From: Escherichia coli
GTDB taxonomy: Bacteria > Pseudomonadota > Gammaproteobacteria > Enterobacterales > Enterobacteriaceae
DNA: 64,000 nt
Assembly (NCBI RefSeq): GCF_003334315.1
Contig: NZ_QOWR01000003.1
Direction: 5' to 3' (one strand)
Every line of letters begins with the position of its first letter. Position 1 is the stretch's first letter. The notes beneath the pieces were generated by a model. The model was not told the DNA's origin and ran no database searches. It saw only the letters and a list, made by a program, of their open reading frames with translations. Below are positions 1,340-54,077 of this stretch, piece by piece. The position numbers were made by a program, and so were the translations under genes.

Positions 1340-4300
1340 TTACCCTACCGCTGGCGTCGGGTCATCGCCTTTGTAGTCGCGTTTTACTTCCGTCACCTCA
1401 TCGCCCTTCTCGTTGTGCAGATGCACTTCAAGCTGGTTAAAGGCAATGTTGATGTCGTTTTCACGGCACAGCTGATCGATAGTACGGTTCAGCTCATCGA
1501 CAGTACGACTACGGTCACGCAGTTCACGCACATACAGACGCAGCTCATGATCCAACGTGCTGGCACCAAATGCCGTAAAGAAGACTTCCGGCATTGGTTC
1601 GTGCATCACCCTTGGGTGCTCAGTCGCCGCCTTCAGTAACACTTTACGCACTTTTTCCAGATCGGAGCCATAGGCCACGCCGAGACGGATCACCAGACGC
1701 GTAGTAGTGTCAGTCAACGACCAGTTGATCAGACGCTCGGTAACAAACGCTTTGTTCGGGATGATCACTTCTTTGCGATCGAAATCGGTAATCGTTGTCG
1801 CACGAATACGGATCTTACTTACCGTCCCCGAGAAGCTACCAATGGTTACCGTATCGCCAATACGCACCGGACGTTCGAATAGAATGATCAAACCGGAGAC
1901 GAAGTTACCGAAAATTTCTTGTAAACCAAAACCAAGACCTACGGATAATGCTGCGGCCAGCCACTGGAGTTTATCCCAAGAGACGCCCAGCGATCCGAAC
2001 ACCGTCATCGCGCCAACAGCAATAATGATGTAGTTAAGGATGGTAGTAATGGCATACGACGCGCCCTGGCGCATATTCAGTCGCGAGAGCACCAGCACTT
2101 CCAGTAAACCAGGCAGGTTGCGAATCAACGCCCAGGCCACCATTGAGGCGATAATCGCAAACAACAGACTGCCCATGGTGACGTTTTTCACCACCGCAGC
2201 GCCAGCTTCAGTGCCGTTGTAATGCCAGAGCGTGATGCTGTCGAGATAGCTGAACACGGTGATCAAATCGGACCAAATTGCCCAGAACATGACACCGAAC
2301 AGCGCAAACATCAGCAACATGGTAATACGCAGCGTCTGCTGGTTAACTTGCTCCAGTGCAATGGTGGGTTCTTCCGGCGGTTCAGCACCTTCTGCGCCCT
2401 CTTTCACCAGATTCTGCCGACGCGCCAGCGCACGACGCCAGGCGATACGCCGCGCCGCTACGCTTAAGCCACGCAGTACCGTCTGGTACAGCAGGTTCCA
2501 GATGATCACCAGATAAACGGTTTCAATCCAGCGTCCTGCCAGACGCAGCGTAGTGTAGAAGTAGCCTGTAGCAGTCAGCACCATCAGCGCAATCGGGATT
2601 ATCGACAGCACGGTAATGGTGACCAGTCGCATGGTGTGCGACTCTTTATCACGCCAGCTTTCGCGGCACATCGGCCATACCAGGAAGGCAATCAGCAGCA
2701 GGTTGAAGAAAATCATCGCTTGCCCCAGCACATCATCCATCAGATGCAGCGGGGAAAGTTCTGCCACCACAGACCAGAAATGGATAGGCAGCAATGCGAG
2801 ACTGATGCGGACAATTTGCCGACGCCAGTGGCTGGTCTGCTGTTCCGGCATGCCGAAGTGACGTACGGCAACGCCGTTTTTCTCCAGTACCTTCCAGCAC
2901 AGGCCAAACACCAGCCAGAATATCGCCAGTTTTTTGCTGAACGACCATAGCAGTTCGCTGATGTTGAGCTGCATGGTCAACAGAATCAGGCCAACCGCGA
3001 GAATAATCAGGCACACCGGCAGCGCACGGATCAGGTCGATAAGGATCGCTTTTGGTGTGTTGAGCTGGCTGTCGTTACGCAGGGAACCCACAGCGGAAGC
3101 CAGTTTTTGTTGATACGCTTTCAGCCAGCCCAGACGCCAGTGGATCAGCCCGGCAATCAACAGCAGCGGCAAACCAGCGAGGAAAGCGATAAAAACGGCG
3201 GGCCAGGCTTTTTGCCAGTTCACCGTGATTTTCATCGACTTAAATTCATCTTTCAGGCTTTGCGGGAACGCTTTGATCCAGTCCCAGTCCATTGGACGGT
3301 TACTGTTCACCCAAAAGATTTGCTGAGTCAGGATGGATTTCAGGTTTTTCGACACACTCATTAACTGCTGCTGGTTGATTTGCAGGTTAATGGCCATCAT
3401 CAGCTGGTTACCCAACTGTTTGTTGAGTTGATCCAGCAATTCGCGACGCATATCAACCACTTGCAATAACGCATCGTGAACTTCGCTGTTGACTTCGTTG
3501 GTGTGACCTTCTTCCAGTTTGTTGACGAACGCATCGCTCTGGAAGAGTGCATCACGCTGCTGGTTAACTTCAAACTGTTCGAGACGCAAATCCGCGATGC
3601 GGTTGGTCATGTTTTCCAGTTCATCCGCCGAGGGCAGCGTTTGTTGTTGCTGGTAAAGGATACGAGACAACAGCAGGCTGCCCTTCAGGACGGCAATCTG
3701 CTCTTTAATATTGCGTTCCGATTGCAGCGCCCGCTCCAGCCAGTTTTTGACTTTAATGTTTTGCTGCATCAACTGATTACCGTTTTCAGTCGCGGTAATC
3801 AGACGCTGACTTAACTGCTGGTTAATTTCCAGTTCCTGCTTCACCAGCGGATTAGCCTGAATACGCGCGGCTTCATCCGGGGAGACGGCTTCCTGCGCCG
3901 TTTTTTCGGTTAAAGTCAGGCGCTTGCTGTTTACCGCTTCTTGCAACAGTTGTAACTGGTGCTCCAGACGAGCGCTGTTCGCCGTCACGTAATCACGTTG
4001 CTTTTGCAAGGTATCCTGCAAGACGGTGTTCCCTTCCAGGCTTTTACGCTGCTGGTCAATCTCCGCATTCAGCAACGCCTGCTGGGCCTGCATTAACACT
4101 TTCTGGCTGGGACGTAAGGCTGTCTCGCCGACATCAGTCCCATCCAGACGACTGCGAATTTGTTGCAGCTGCTGCGAAGCGTTATACATCGCATTTTGCA
4201 CGCGTTCGGGCTGCGTCTGTAACGAAACCAGCTGGCTGTTATAAGACGCCAGATCGTTTTGTGCGTTTTGCAAATCGTCCAGCGCCTGGGCAACGCGAGT

Positions 4301-4702
4301 TTCCAGCTGGCGCAACGACAGCGTGCTCAGAATTTTGCGCGTTTCTTCGTCGTTATCGACATCGCTAAGTGCTGTTAACGCCGCGGTCGCCTGGCGCATT
4401 TTTTCCGGCGCTTCAGCGACTTTTTGCCGTAGCTGAACTGTCTCTTCTTTTATGCGATCGATTTTATCGAGGGTGGCTAATGTATCTGTCAGATCCTGCT
4501 GCACCAGTTTGTCCTGAGCAGAAAGATCTTTTTGTTTATTTAGTGAGTCAAGTTGCGCCTGCAGGTCCGCTTTTGTCGGCAGATCACCATTCGATGACGC
4601 CCGCGCAAACGCCGTGTTCTGGCATAACAAGACAAAAACAAAAGCAATAAATGCTGAAAAAACAAAATGCCGTGATCGTTTGTAATACTGGAACATAGTC
4701 AT
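1340..4702 (-). CDS. mscK: Potassium-dependent mechanosensitive channel MscK (KefA)
   Basis: ORF track 1340..4702, 1120 aa; N-terminal coiled-coil region and C-terminal MscS-like domain; length matches MscK. Confidence 0.95.
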   Translation of the reverse strand: MTMFQYYKRSRHFVFSAFIAFVFVLLCQNTAFARASSNGDLPTKADLQAQLDSLNKQKDLSAQDKLVQQDLTDTLATLDKIDRIKEETVQLRQKVAEAPEKMRQATAALTALSDVDNDEETRKILSTLSLRQLETRVAQALDDLQNAQNDLASYNSQLVSLQTQPERVQNAMYNASQQLQQIRSRLDGTDVGETALRPSQKVLMQAQQALLNAEIDQQRKSLEGNTVLQDTLQKQRDYVTANSARLEHQLQLLQEAVNSKRLTLTEKTAQEAVSPDEAARIQANPLVKQELEINQQLSQRLITATENGNQLMQQNIKVKNWLERALQSERNIKEQIAVLKGSLLLSRILYQQQQTLPSADELENMTNRIADLRLEQFEVNQQRDALFQSDAFVNKLEEGHTNEVNSEVHDALLQVVDMRRELLDQLNKQLGNQLMMAINLQINQQQLMSVSKNLKSILTQQIFWVNSNRPMDWDWIKAFPQSLKDEFKSMKITVNWQKAWPAVFIAFLAGLPLLLIAGLIHWRLGWLKAYQQKLASAVGSLRNDSQLNTPKAILIDLIRALPVCLIILAVGLILLTMQLNISELLWSFSKKLAIFWLVFGLCWKVLEKNGVAVRHFGMPEQQTSHWRRQIVRISLALLPIHFWSVVAELSPLHLMDDVLGQAMIFFNLLLIAFLVWPMCRESWRDKESHTMRLVTITVLSIIPIALMVLTATGYFYTTLRLAGRWIETVYLVIIWNLLYQTVLRGLSVAARRIAWRRALARRQNLVKEGAEGAEPPEEPTIALEQVNQQTLRITMLLMFALFGVMFWAIWSDLITVFSYLDSITLWHYNGTEAGAAVVKNVTMGSLLFAIIASMVAWALIRNLPGLLEVLVLSRLNMRQGASYAITTILNYIIIAVGAMTVFGSLGVSWDKLQWLAAALSVGLGFGLQEIFGNFVSGLIILFERPVRIGDTVTIGSFSGTVSKIRIRATTITDFDRKEVIIPNKAFVTERLINWSLTDTTTRLVIRLGVAYGSDLEKVRKVLLKAATEHPRVMHEPMPEVFFTAFGASTLDHELRLYVRELRDRSRTVDELNRTIDQLCRENDINIAFNQLEVHLHNEKGDEVTEVKRDYKGDDPTPAVG

Positions 4703-14676: not shown

Positions 14677-14790
14677 GGGTGGGGGCCCTGCCAGCTACAT
14701 CCCGGCACACGCGTCATCTGCCTTGGCTGCTTCCTTCCGGACCTGACCTGGTAAACAGAGTAGCGTTGCGGGAGAACCAACAGAGCCCCC
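14677..14790 (-). ncRNA. ffs: 4.5S RNA (SRP RNA, ffs)
   Basis: Reverse complement of 14677..14790 reads GGGGGCTCTGTTGGTTCTCCCGCAACGCTACTCTGTTTACCAGGTCAGGTCCGGAAGGAAGCAGCCAAGGCAGATGACGCGTGTGCCGGGATGTAGCTGGCAGGGCCCCCACC, the E. coli 4.5S RNA; ends are approximate to 1-2 nt. Confidence 0.93.
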
Positions 14791-26877: not shown

Positions 26878-29323
<2,446 letters not shown>

Positions 29324-32350: not shown

Positions 32351-32430
32351 AGAGCTCTCTCTTAGTTTAATTTCCGCCAGGTAATCAGATGACACGATTG
32401 TGCTTCACGCCATCTATTAACATGTACGTC

Positions 32431-32462
32431 AGTATATGGGGATGTTTCCCCCACATTCAACG
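32431..32462 (-). promoter_or_regulatory. Heat-shock (sigma32-type) promoter of lon
   Basis: Minus strand reads cgTTGAAtgtgggggaaacatCCCCATATAct, matching the sigma32 -35 (TTGAA) and -10 (CCCCATnT) consensus, about 80 nt upstream of the lon ATG. Confidence 0.6.
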
Positions 32463-32537
32463 CCGAGAATAGAGGAAAAATTAAAGGGGAGATAAAATCC
32501 CCCCTTTTTGGTTAACTAATTGTATGGGAATGGTTAA

Positions 32538-51060: not shown

Positions 51061-52923
51061 ATGAGTTTTGATATTGCCAAATACCCGACCCTGGCACTGG
51101 TCGACTCCACCCAGGAGTTACGACTGTTGCCGAAAGAGAGTTTACCGAAACTCTGCGACGAACTGCGCCGCTATTTACTCGACAGCGTGAGCCGTTCCAG
51201 CGGGCACTTCGCCTCCGGGCTGGGCACGGTCGAACTGACCGTGGCGCTGCACTATGTCTACAACACCCCGTTTGACCAATTGATTTGGGATGTGGGGCAT
51301 CAGGCTTATCCGCATAAAATTTTGACCGGACGCCGCGACAAAATCGGCACCATCCGTCAGAAAGGCGGTCTGCACCCGTTCCCGTGGCGCGGCGAAAGCG
51401 AATATGACGTATTAAGCGTCGGGCATTCATCAACCTCCATCAGTGCCGGAATTGGTATTGCGGTTGCTGCCGAGAAAGAAGGCAAAAATCGCCGCACCGT
51501 CTGTGTAATCGGCGATGGTGCGATTACCGCAGGCATGGCGTTTGAAGCGATGAATCACGCGGGCGATATCCGTCCTGATATGCTGGTGGTTCTCAACGAC
51601 AATGAAATGTCGATTTCCGAAAATGTCGGCGCGCTCAACAACCATCTGGCGCAGCTGCTTTCCGGTAAGCTTTACTCTTCACTGCGCGAAGGCGGGAAAA
51701 AAGTTTTCTCTGGCGTTCCGCCAATTAAAGAGCTGCTCAAACGCACCGAAGAACATATTAAAGGCATGGTAGTGCCTGGCACGTTGTTTGAAGAGCTGGG
51801 CTTTAACTACATCGGCCCGGTTGACGGTCACGATGTGCTGGGGCTTATCACCACGCTTAAGAACATGCGCGACCTGAAAGGCCCGCAGTTCCTGCATATC
51901 ATGACCAAAAAAGGTCGTGGTTATGAACCGGCAGAAAAAGACCCAATCACTTTCCACGCCGTGCCTAAATTTGATCCCTCCAGCGGTTGTTTGCCGAAAA
52001 GTAGCGGCGGTTTGCCGAGCTATTCAAAAATCTTTGGCGACTGGTTGTGCGAAACGGCAGCGAAAGACAACAAGCTGATGGCGATTACTCCGGCGATGCG
52101 TGAAGGTTCCGGCATGGTCGAGTTTTCACGTAAATTCCCGGATCGCTACTTCGACGTGGCAATTGCCGAGCAACACGCGGTGACCTTTGCTGCGGGTCTG
52201 GCGATTGGTGGGTACAAACCCATTGTCGCGATTTACTCCACTTTCCTGCAACGCGCCTATGATCAGGTGCTGCATGACGTGGCGATTCAAAAGCTTCCGG
52301 TCCTGTTCGCCATCGACCGCGCGGGCATTGTTGGTGCTGACGGTCAAACCCATCAGGGTGCTTTTGATCTCTCTTACCTGCGCTGCATACCGGAAATGGT
52401 CATTATGACCCCGAGCGATGAAAACGAATGTCGCCAGATGCTCTATACCGGCTATCACTATAACGATGGCCCGTCAGCGGTGCGCTACCCGCGTGGCAAC
52501 GCGGTCGGCGTGGAACTGACGCCGCTGGAAAAACTACCAATTGGCAAAGGCATTGTGAAGCGTCGTGGCGAGAAACTGGCGATCCTTAACTTTGGTACGC
52601 TGATGCCAGAAGCGGCGAAAGTCGCCGAATCGCTGAACGCCACGCTGGTCGATATGCGTTTTGTGAAACCGCTTGATGAAGCGTTAATTCTGGAAATGGC
52701 CGCCAGCCATGAAGCGCTGGTCACCGTAGAAGAAAACGCCATTATGGGCGGCGCAGGCAGCGGCGTGAACGAAGTGCTGATGGCCCATCGTAAACCAGTA
52801 CCCGTGCTGAACATTGGCCTGCCGGACTTCTTTATTCCGCAAGGAACTCAGGAAGAAATGCGCGCCGAACTCGGCCTCGATGCCGCTGGTATGGAAGCCA
52901 AAATCAAGGCCTGGCTGGCATAA
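51061..52923 (+). CDS. dxs: 1-deoxy-D-xylulose-5-phosphate synthase
   Basis: ORF track 51061..52923, 620 aa, TPP-binding [18 protein letters not shown]. Confidence 0.97.
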
Positions 52924-52924
52924 T

Positions 52925-53099
52925 CCCTACTCCACTCCTGCTATGCTTAAGAAATTATTCATAGACTCTAAATAATTCGAGTTGCAGGAAGGCGGCAAAC
53001 GAGTGAAGCCCCAGGAGCTTACATAAGTAAGTGACTGGGGTGAACGAATGCAGCCGCAGCACATGCAACTTGAAGTATGACGAGTATAGCAGGAGTGGC
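52925..53099. repeat. ERIC/IRU (enterobacterial repetitive intergenic consensus) element between dxs and yajO
   Basis: Core gtgaagccccaggagcttacataagtaagtgactggggtgaacg matches the two ERIC PCR primer sites (ERIC1R reverse complement and ERIC2) with 1-2 mismatches; flanked by a perfect 13-bp inverted repeat ccactcctgctat (52932-52944) / atagcaggagtgg (53086-53098). Confidence 0.8.
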
Positions 53100-53102
53100 A
53101 GC

Positions 53103-54077
53103 ATGCAATACAACCCCTTAGGAAAAACCGACCTTCGCGTTTCCCGACTTTGCCTCGGCTGTATGACCTTTGGCGAGCCAGATCGCGGTAATCACGCATG
53201 GACACTGCCGGAAGAAAGCAGCCGTCCCATAATTAAACGTGCACTGGAAGGCGGCATAAATTTCTTTGATACCGCCAACAGTTATTCTGACGGCAGCAGC
53301 GAAGAGATCGTCGGTCGCGCACTGCGGGATTTCGCCCGTCGTGAAGACGTGGTCGTTGCGACCAAAGTGTTCCATCGCGTTGGTGATTTACCGGAAGGAT
53401 TATCCCGTGCGCAAATTTTGCGCTCTATCGACGACAGCCTGCGACGTCTCGGCATGGATTATGTCGATATCCTGCAAATTCATCGCTGGGATTACAACAC
53501 GCCGATCGAAGAGACGCTGGAAGCCCTCAACGACGTGGTAAAAGCCGGGAAAGCGCGTTATATCGGCGCGTCATCAATGCACGCTTCGCAGTTTGCTCAG
53601 GCACTGGAACTCCAAAAACAGCACGGCTGGGCGCAGTTTGTCAGTATGCAGGATCACTACAATCTGATTTATCGTGAAGAAGAGCGCGAGATGCTACCAC
53701 TGTGTTATCAGGAGGGCGTGGCGGTAATTCCATGGAGCCCGCTGGCAAGGGGCCGTCTGACGCGTCCGTGGGGAGAAACTACCGCACGACTGGTGTCTGA
53801 TGAGGTGGGGAAAAATCTCTATAAAGAAAGCGATGAAAATGACGCGCAGATCGCAGAGCGGTTAACAGGCGTCAGTGAAGAACTGGGGGCGACACGAGCA
53901 CAAGTTGCGCTGGCCTGGTTGTTGAATAAACCGGGCATTGCCGCACCGATTATCGGAACTTCGCGCGAAGAACAGCTTGATGAGCTATTGAACGCGGTGG
54001 ATATCACTTTGAAGCCGGAACAGATTGCCGAACTGGAAACGCCGTATAAACCGCATCCTGTCGTAGGATTTAAATAA
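53103..54077 (+). CDS. yajO: Aldo-keto reductase YajO
   Basis: ATG at 53103 (MQYNPLGKTDLRVSRLCLGCMTFG) inside ORF-track entry 53031..54077; 324 aa. Confidence 0.9.
   Translation: MQYNPLGKTDLRVSRLCLGCMTFGEPDRGNHAWTLPEESSRPIIKRALEGGINFFDTANSYSDGSSEEIVGRALRDFARREDVVVATKVFHRVGDLPEGLSRAQILRSIDDSLRRLGMDYVDILQIHRWDYNTPIEETLEALNDVVKAGKARYIGASSMHASQFAQALELQKQHGWAQFVSMQDHYNLIYREEEREMLPLCYQEGVAVIPWSPLARGRLTRPWGETTARLVSDEVGKNLYKESDENDAQIAERLTGVSEELGATRAQVALAWLLNKPGIAAPIIGTSREEQLDELLNAVDITLKPEQIAELETPYKPHPVVGFK

Follow-up and report, generated by a model that had tools for sequence, protein, structure and literature searches.

An ERIC element within a conserved host stem-loop between dxs and yajO of Escherichia coli and the candidate promoters associated with it

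The 64,000-nucleotide (nt) stretch of Escherichia coli DNA that was analysed here (contig NZ_QOWR01000003.1 of assembly GCF_003334315.1; hereafter the window) carries a copy of the enterobacterial repetitive intergenic consensus (ERIC, also known as intergenic repeat unit, IRU) between the genes dxs and yajO. We consider it likely that this MITE (miniature inverted-repeat transposable element) was inserted into a pre-existing host stem-loop, that the stem-loop hides the Shine-Dalgarno (SD) sequence of yajO and possibly embeds a promoter, and that the junction between host and ERIC forms an antisense promoter and a source of double-stranded RNA (dsRNA). The features concerned are as follows, in window coordinates and with their basis in brackets.

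51061-52923, plus strand: dxs coding sequence, 620 aa, stop codon TAA at 52921-52923 (open reading frame (ORF) list; RefSeq annotation of the identical sequence)
52932-52944, plus strand: 5' arm of the host hairpin, CCACTCCTGCTAT, with the anti-SD CTCCT (inverted repeat I2; empty-site E. coli; 80 species)
52940-52950, plus strand: candidate sigma-S-type extended -10, GCTATGCTTAA, hexamer TATGCT at 52942-52947 (consensus match, conservation)
52962-53088: full-length ERIC/IRU element, 127 bp (TA, 123-bp body, TA)
52962-52963: left copy of the duplicated TA (filled versus empty alleles; TA flanks in five other copies)
52964-53086, plus strand: ERIC/IRU body, 123 bp (end-to-end alignment to five copies; internal inverted repeats)
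53003-53046, plus strand: ERIC central core with the ERIC1R and ERIC2 primer sites (primer matches)
53076, minus strand: antisense start, U00096.2 position 437386 on the plus strand of K-12 (four published transcription start site (TSS) data sets)
53083-53091, minus strand: antisense extended -10 TGcTATACT, in which TGC belongs to the host arm, TA to the target duplication and TACT to the terminal repeat of ERIC
53086-53098, plus strand: 3' arm of the host hairpin, ATAGCAGGAGTGG, of which only 53089-53098 is strictly host (inverted repeat; empty sites)
53087-53088: right copy of the duplicated TA (filled versus empty alleles; A53088 is G in 1,159 ERIC-bearing genomes)
53103-54077, plus strand: yajO coding sequence, 324 aa, ATG at 53103 (sequence and annotation)
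52927-53205, minus strand: spurious ORF of 92 aa through ERIC (GTG start antisense to yajO; length varies with the allele)

The host stem-loop over the yajO Shine-Dalgarno sequence

The spacer between dxs and yajO is 179 bp long (52924-53102) and identical to that of K-12 MG1655. The initial annotation had described a perfect 13-bp inverted repeat as bounding the ERIC core; the repeat is real, but it is a host hairpin and no feature of ERIC, because the stem exists in empty-site genomes that lack the element. In empty-site E. coli the spacer reads CCACTCCTGCTATG-cttaagaaattatt-CATGGCAGGAGTGG-cagc-ATG. The 5' arm begins 8 nt past the dxs stop codon, and the SD sequence of yajO, AGGAG (53091-53095), lies within the 3' arm, 7 nt before the ATG. 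The symmetrical position of the repeat around the element speaks for an extension of the copy's own terminal repeats, but that reading can be set aside with near certainty: 75 other species and ~2,580 E. coli genomes have the repeat without ERIC, the flanks of the other ERIC copies are unrelated to it, and the empty sites refute it.

Spacers from 80 Enterobacteriaceae species were recovered by a YajO-based scan, and the 77 spacers free of ERIC were aligned. All 80 species have CTCCTGCTATGCTTAA, followed 14-35 nt on by GCAGGAG and, 7-8 nt later, by the start codon. RNAalifold recovered the host helix independently from the 77 aligned spacers. In this 10-bp helix 97.9% of the cells are paired, and its covariation score was reached by none of 500 shuffles, with slid controls scoring far lower. 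Compensatory changes are present in the three outer pairs (23-76, 24-75 and 25-74), in the combinations CCAC/GTGG, TCGC/GCGA, TCTC/GAGA and CGGC/GCTG, and the stem is kept across species in which the loop length ranges from ~14 to 35 nt.

In predicted ensembles, the unpaired probability of the yajO SD was 0.000 in read-through RNA and 0.5-0.7 in RNA that starts at the predicted sense TSS (see below), and this was alike for the empty, short and long alleles. The SD is therefore predicted to be hidden in dxs read-through mRNA. This arrangement is like that of SD-sequestering stem-loops which uncouple a distal cistron, with a 10-14-bp stem that pairs CTCCT with AGGAG 7 nt before the start and shows compensatory changes. 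It differs from them in that its 5' arm shares sequence with a promoter-like element, so that one and the same DNA would silence the read-through mRNA and launch a translatable one, and in that no ligand, temperature or protein trigger is evident. We could not find the host stem-loop upstream of yajO described in the literature and, as far as we found, the host context of this ERIC copy (anti-SD hairpin and promoter) has no published description either.

The ERIC element, its alleles and its insertion site

Positions 52962-53088 are confirmed as a copy of ERIC/IRU, a non-autonomous mobile repeat with TA as its insertion target, which becomes duplicated; this K-12 copy had already been catalogued. 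An ERIC core with adjacent primer sites had been recognised initially, and a 44-nt core was indeed found at 53003-53046 (+) with 2 mismatches, compared with 0 matches in 100 shuffles. Within it, the ERIC1R (53003-53024, -) and ERIC2 (53025-53046, +) sites lie back to back with one mismatch each, where the primer strings were verified against the literature, and the ERIC2 primer sequence is on the dxs/yajO sense strand. The span first assigned to the element, 52925-53099, does contain ERIC but corresponds approximately to the whole spacer including host DNA, the true limits being 52962-53088. The element also aligned, as had been anticipated, to other genomic copies: the alignment was end-to-end with five E. 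coli copies taken from empty-site genomes (yafP-rtcB, pgk-fbaA, ybhJ-ybhI, yeiS-preT and yehK-yehL), and over seven rows it is full-length with 103 invariant columns. Whereas the ends elsewhere read TA-TACTC...GAGTA-TA, the dxs-yajO copy reads TA-GACTC...GAGTA-TA, with G for T as the first body base. E. coli genomes have a median of 6 ERIC places (megablast), and we know of no transposase for ERIC, the trace of mobilisation seen at dxs-yajO being the TA footprint.

In reviews ERIC is listed among the MITEs, with terminal repeats of 7 bp, TA at either end and a duplicated target (PMC2229807, PMC3184786). The dxs-yajO copy has 7-bp terminal inverted repeats, TA at both ends and a duplicated TA target, as listed in PMC2229807 Table 1. 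It further resembles the classical ERIC/IRU (1991; Wilson and Sharp 2006) in its length of 127 bp, its central core and its imperfect palindrome, in its intergenic position within a transcription unit and in having a long variant with a ~78-bp internal insert; it is the very copy present in K-12. Nothing essential sets it apart, the first body base being G and not T. The palindrome arises from internal inverted repeats in the body (pairs I1 and I3). The long hairpin that had been proposed for the RNA was borne out by folding of the plus-strand RNA of 52915-53125 (-81.5 kcal/mol, z = -7.3); for the minus-strand RNA of the spacer region the fold z was -4.8.

At gathering thresholds Rfam gave no match in the dxs-yajO spacer and offered no ERIC family. 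With an E-value threshold the only match there was a sub-threshold one to RF02818 V_AS5 (Vibrio antisense RNA AS5), which scored 52.5 bits (E = 5e-11; gathering score 96), with model positions 1-129 aligned to 52961-53084. The alignment is full-length and the hairpin architecture is common to both, but under the gathering score the dxs-yajO ERIC is not a member by the Rfam criterion; the Vibrio V_AS5 family appears, from this sequence alignment, to be a relative of ERIC. Elsewhere in the window, gathering-level matches were obtained for sraA (RF02029, 106.7 bits, 32422-32517, +) and the small SRP RNA (RF00169, 68.1 bits, 14686-14782, -).

A comparison of 5,426 complete E. coli genomes with a 901-nt query revealed three spacer lengths. 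ERIC is present at dxs-yajO in 2,844 of them, 123 of which carry a long form with a net internal insert of +78 bp, while ~2,580, O157:H7 for example, have an empty 54-bp spacer. The comparison across genomes that had been suggested at the outset thus uncovered a filled/empty polymorphism in E. coli, and the site is empty in Salmonella enterica subsp. diarizonae, as it is in E. whittamii and Citrobacter. Among filled genomes, 1,159 have G at the right TA and end in ...GAGTATGGCAGG, and by subtraction ~1,685 have A like the window and end in ...GAGTATAGCAGG; the A53088 allele is TGCTATACT and the G53088 allele TGCCATACT. In the common empty allele, TTCATGGCAGG, the G is derived; this allele may be ancestral or may stem from a filled G-type allele that lost the element, and the flanking haplotypes are mosaic.

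The empty site TTCATAGCAGG was found in exactly one of the 5,426 genomes, strain Z1323PEC0010 (GCF_037529465.1; NZ_CP148282.1 3641925-3643166). Its single-copy site reads TTCA-TA-GCAGG, with one TA left. Over 800 bp of flanks, 400 bp per side, this strain does not differ from the window, whereas the two other empty alleles compared (O157:H7 and MS20653) have 18-21 differing flank sites. Given this identity, the simplest explanation for Z1323PEC0010, judged from its assembled sequence, is that a K-12-type allele lost ERIC precisely.

E. albertii has the long ERIC form at the same TA and shares the T-to-G change at the first body base. Its copy differs from the E. coli long form at 5 of 205 positions (2.4%), against 44 of 267 third-codon positions (16.5%) in the dxs/yajO flanks. 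On these alignments ERIC at dxs-yajO appears far better conserved than neutral sites, for which selection, gene conversion or transfer are possible causes. In the long form (E. coli GPEC464 and E. albertii, for example) an 80-nt segment rich in hairpins takes the place of the dinucleotide AT that follows ...GGGGTGAACGA. The yeiS-preT and yehK-yehL copies contain this segment too, at the corresponding internal position, and it resembles either a nested insert or a second ERIC subfamily. On NZ_CP114132.1, a 438,722-bp record classed as a plasmid, positions 28476-28511 hold a 36-bp fragment that matches the right arm of ERIC exactly (window 53055-53090), and one plasmid-classed record contains a G-type ERIC/yajO junction.

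The insertion took place at a TA between the loop and the 3' arm, downstream of the sense -10 and its predicted start and upstream of the SD. The usual sequence here in other genera is A-GCAGGAG, which makes TTCA-TA-GCAGG the probable target. In Phytobacter diazotrophicus, P. ursingii and Kosakonia sp. S29 the same hairpin is occupied, at a TA one nucleotide away, by a diverged member of the ERIC family with the same orientation, and P. massiliensis is empty at this Phytobacter/Kosakonia insertion site; the metagenome-assembled UBA3516 has kept only the two ends of a diverged ERIC-family element (~28 nt). These sequences point to at least two independent ERIC-family insertions at the loop/3'-arm junction. 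Such repeated insertion would fit a target preference as well as survival only where nothing essential is broken.

The position of ERIC also bears on gene calling. The yajO start is the ATG at 53103 and not the GTG at 53031 given by the ORF list (348 aa), which falls within ERIC. This start has no counterpart in empty-site strains, and longest-ORF gene callers would mis-extend YajO by 24 ERIC-encoded residues (window 53031-53102, +). The minus-strand ORF, which had been dismissed initially as spurious, shrinks from 92 aa with ERIC to 41 aa in empty-site strains and grows to 118 aa in the long form, and since its length tracks the insertion alleles we too rejected it as a gene. The earlier placement of the element in the dxs 3' untranslated region (UTR) and/or the yajO 5' UTR is reasonable; a scan for intrinsic terminators found no terminator-like site in the dxs-yajO spacer.

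Promoters on both strands and the dsRNA cluster S-43

On the minus strand the right junction reads CCACTCCTGC-TA-TACTCGT. The hairpin arms are inverted copies, and the minus strand at the right junction therefore reads TGcTATACT, an extended -10. A start at 53076, 7 nt past the hexamer, was predicted from the sequence before TSS data were consulted, and the data matched it. For this, window positions (w) were mapped to U00096.2 (v2) as v2 = 437359 + (53103 - w), which was checked against gene coordinates. An antisense TSS at 437386 (+) is listed from the Thomason data under cluster 43, and an antisense unit at 437387-437951 from the Conway data (both Huang 2020 Table S1); Cappable-seq has a TSS at 437386 (+) with a score of 38.7; and the entry 'yajO -27, new antisense, intergenic' in the Mendoza-Vargas 2009 supplement has tcctGCTATACTcgtc as its -10 box. 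The resulting antisense RNA of ~564 nt ends at about window position 52511, having crossed ERIC and the final ~410 nt of dxs. Consistent with this, antisense reads on dxs amount to 52.8 reads per million (RPM), compared with ~1-5 for most neighbouring genes. Weak antisense starts are reported nearby as well, at U00096.2 437489 and 437493 (window ~52969-52973, -).

The junction promoter is thus backed by four independent start-site data sets, and its dependence on ERIC is predicted from the allele sequences: at the antisense -10, empty sites read TGCCATGAAT and G-type filled alleles TGCCATACT. The -10 is accordingly perfect in ~31% of E. coli genomes, weakened in ~21% and missing in ~48%. A TG correctly placed for an extended -10 was found in none of the five other ERIC copies examined. 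ERIC termini with partial promoters have already been stated for Yersinia (PMC3488235), and the antisense junction promoter is therefore a known kind of effect. The Yersinia ERICs (De Gregorio et al. 2005) and the Neisseria Correia/CREE elements are MITEs transcribed together with their neighbours, the RNA folding into hairpins, and the dxs-yajO copy presumably shares these features. It differs in that the host supplies the extended -10 TG, the host arm being an inverted copy of a promoter-like element, and in that the output is an antisense RNA to an essential gene and not activation of a downstream gene.

The antisense start lies at the edge of a published dsRNA cluster. Cluster S-43 (437393-437579; window 52883-53069) was captured by p19 and is RNase III-dependent (Huang 2020); it is the fourth most abundant among the clusters overlapping coding genes and was classed there as 'New AS', in a paper that never mentions ERIC. 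The listed S-43 duplex reads (437394-437484) are all within ERIC and consist of sense/antisense pairs of 21-22-mers at the same coordinates with a 2-nt offset. This pairing favours an origin of S-43 from antisense RNA paired with sense RNA, perhaps with a contribution of the ERIC hairpin. We regard it as improbable that the cluster stems instead from RNase III cutting the intramolecular hairpin of ERIC and host in the sense RNA. The long, nearly continuous predicted stem would allow this, the p19 system does capture products of exogenous hairpin RNA, and the reads at 437438-437462 are asymmetric (79,229 sense versus 882 antisense); on the other hand, the 2-nt offset is as for intermolecular duplexes, S-43 reaches 41 nt into dxs and thus past the hairpin, a strong antisense start lies at its edge, and the ERIC stem is imperfect.

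On the sense strand, GCTATGCTTAA agrees in 11 of 11 positions with the sigma-S extended -10 consensus KCTAYRCTTAA / TCTATACTTAA (PMC5650638, PMC3367168). This consensus has 2 matches in the window versus 0.09 expected; the other exact match, GCTACGCTTAA at 2457-2467 (+), is antisense inside a minus-strand ORF of 1,120 aa (1340-4702). The columns of GCTATGCTTAA are invariant or nearly so in the 77 aligned spacers, and the invariance extends to its non-stem part TATGCTTAA. The predicted start is near 52954 (U00096.3 ~438284, minus strand), ~7 nt past the hexamer, and a yajO mRNA starting there would therefore be without the 5' arm. As in other sigma-S extended -10 promoters there is no recognisable -35, and yajO has been listed as sigma-S regulated (Peano 2015, citing Weber 2005). 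Sense reads are 104.9 RPM for yajO versus 71.1 RPM for dxs, although yajO is half as long. Taken with the points against it that are given below, a sense sigma-S promoter of yajO is predicted at roughly even chances. A sigma-70-like match, TTAAGA-18 nt-AATAAT (window 52947-52976, +), has its -35 in the host loop and its -10 in the ERIC left end; judged by its sequence, it could be an ERIC-dependent sense promoter.

The proposed mechanism and its alternatives

Our overall reading can be put as a series of steps. According to in silico folding and covariation, dxs read-through mRNA would fold the stem with the yajO SD hidden. Transcripts from the embedded promoter near 52954 would be without the 5' arm and translatable, and yajO would thereby be uncoupled from the essential xseB-ispA-dxs operon and have its own stationary-phase promoter. 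Insertion of ERIC at the TA is predicted in silico to spare the promoter, the anti-SD and the SD and to do no more than lengthen the hairpin to a rod of ~170 nt, so that it would be near neutral for the yajO switch. Host arm, TA and ERIC end would together give TGcTATACT, the mirror of the sense element, which from the sequence and the four TSS maps appears to fire the ~564-nt antisense RNA into the dxs 3' end. Published data, when reinterpreted, suggest that pairing of this antisense RNA with sense RNA, perhaps with the ERIC hairpin, yields the abundant RNase III dsRNA cluster of K-12. The element would have been both gained and lost, with about half of the E. coli genomes lacking it.

Several observations weigh against parts of this account, above all against the sense promoter. 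The E-sigma-S chromatin immunoprecipitation (ChIP) peak that Peano 2015 reported in the dxs-yajO spacer (437329-437469, centre 437399) corresponds to window 52993-53133; it leaves a gap of 43 bp to the sense motif (437512-437522), covers the antisense -10 (437374-437379) and has its centre 13 nt from the antisense start. It may therefore report the antisense promoter and not a yajO promoter, and since the mapped coordinates fit the antisense mirror element better, we downgraded this peak as support for the sense promoter, which in this respect differs from other sigma-S extended -10 promoters. The yajO start listed in Mendoza-Vargas 2009 is the antisense one only, and the SMRT-Cappable-seq supplements do not mention yajO. 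In those portions of the tables in PMC4512719 that cover it, yajO changed 3.7-fold with cAMP in glucose-limited chemostats and has no value in the RpoS column; dxs is absent from the table portions covering this response, and the response of yajO counts, on the other side, as indirect support for the sense promoter. As to the stem, 7 of its 10 pairs never vary, so that the covariation is carried by three pairs only, and thermodynamic prediction and covariation are the basis for a hidden SD. Co-transcription of dxs and yajO is presumed from the spacer having no terminator-like site.

The full proposal is that a dual-purpose stretch of ~20 nt (anti-SD arm plus sigma-S extended -10) pre-existed, and that in Escherichia a MITE in its loop completed a mirror promoter, giving rise to a strain-specific dxs antisense RNA and a major dsRNA source in K-12; we put this forward tentatively, at somewhat less than an even chance. 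It has to be weighed against the view that ERIC is a neutral passenger at one of the few harmless positions in a 54-nt spacer, with antisense RNA and dsRNA as noise, which in our estimate falls only just short of an even chance. About half of the E. coli genomes do without ERIC, the predicted SD accessibility is equal with and without it, one natural isolate has apparently lost it precisely, and in 1,159 filled genomes the antisense -10 is weakened by the sequence TGCCATACT. A passenger would not, however, be expected to show as few differences between E. albertii and E. coli (5/205 versus 44/267 in the flanks), although gene conversion or recent transfer could explain these, and the strength of the antisense start (Cappable-seq 38.7) and the fourth rank of S-43 among coding-gene clusters also argue against mere noise.

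Two further readings concern the RNA or DNA of the spacer itself. ERIC could act mainly as a cis RNA element, as has been proposed for the ERICs of Yersinia: its hairpin, or the unfolding of that hairpin by ribosomes terminating at the dxs stop close by, would uncover a site for an endonuclease and thereby give the dxs and yajO segments different stabilities. According to reviews, Yersinia ERICs destabilise upstream transcripts via RNase E in an orientation-dependent manner (PMC2229807, PMC3184786), and the dxs-yajO copy lies co-oriented between two same-strand genes without a terminator, has a strong predicted hairpin and is followed by a gene with a higher read density than dxs. We nevertheless think this unlikely: the dxs stop lies 39 nt upstream of ERIC with the host arm in between, and a yajO promoter would account for the read densities just as well. 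It is less likely still that the host stem-loop, rather than insulating translation, serves as a hairpin by which the 3' end of dxs mRNA is protected or processed, or as a palindromic protein-binding site in the DNA. Its start only 8 nt past the dxs stop and the seven invariant pairs, which suggest that the sequence may matter beyond pairing, are in favour of such a role. Yet in every species the 3' arm is exactly the yajO SD, 7 nt before the start, no U-tract follows the stem, and the spacing of the arms varies from ~14 to 35 nt, or by a further 125-203 nt with ERIC; this variable spacing suits an RNA stem and does not suit a dimeric DNA-binding site.

While the ERIC copy itself is textbook material, the added value lies in its context. 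The host stem-loop provides a concrete model, open to testing, of the way in which yajO, a non-essential gene for an aldo-keto reductase, may be insulated from the essential isoprenoid operon upstream. The junction with ERIC would give a sequence-level origin to a published orphan antisense RNA and to an RNase III dsRNA cluster that ranks among the most abundant in K-12, and would be a clear case from nature of a promoter completed by a bacterial MITE. Strain Z1323PEC0010 would offer direct evidence that ERIC can be lost exactly, and the natural allelic series at this site (empty site, short and long forms, a -10 with A or with G, and one precise loss) may be used to measure the effects of a MITE on its neighbours.

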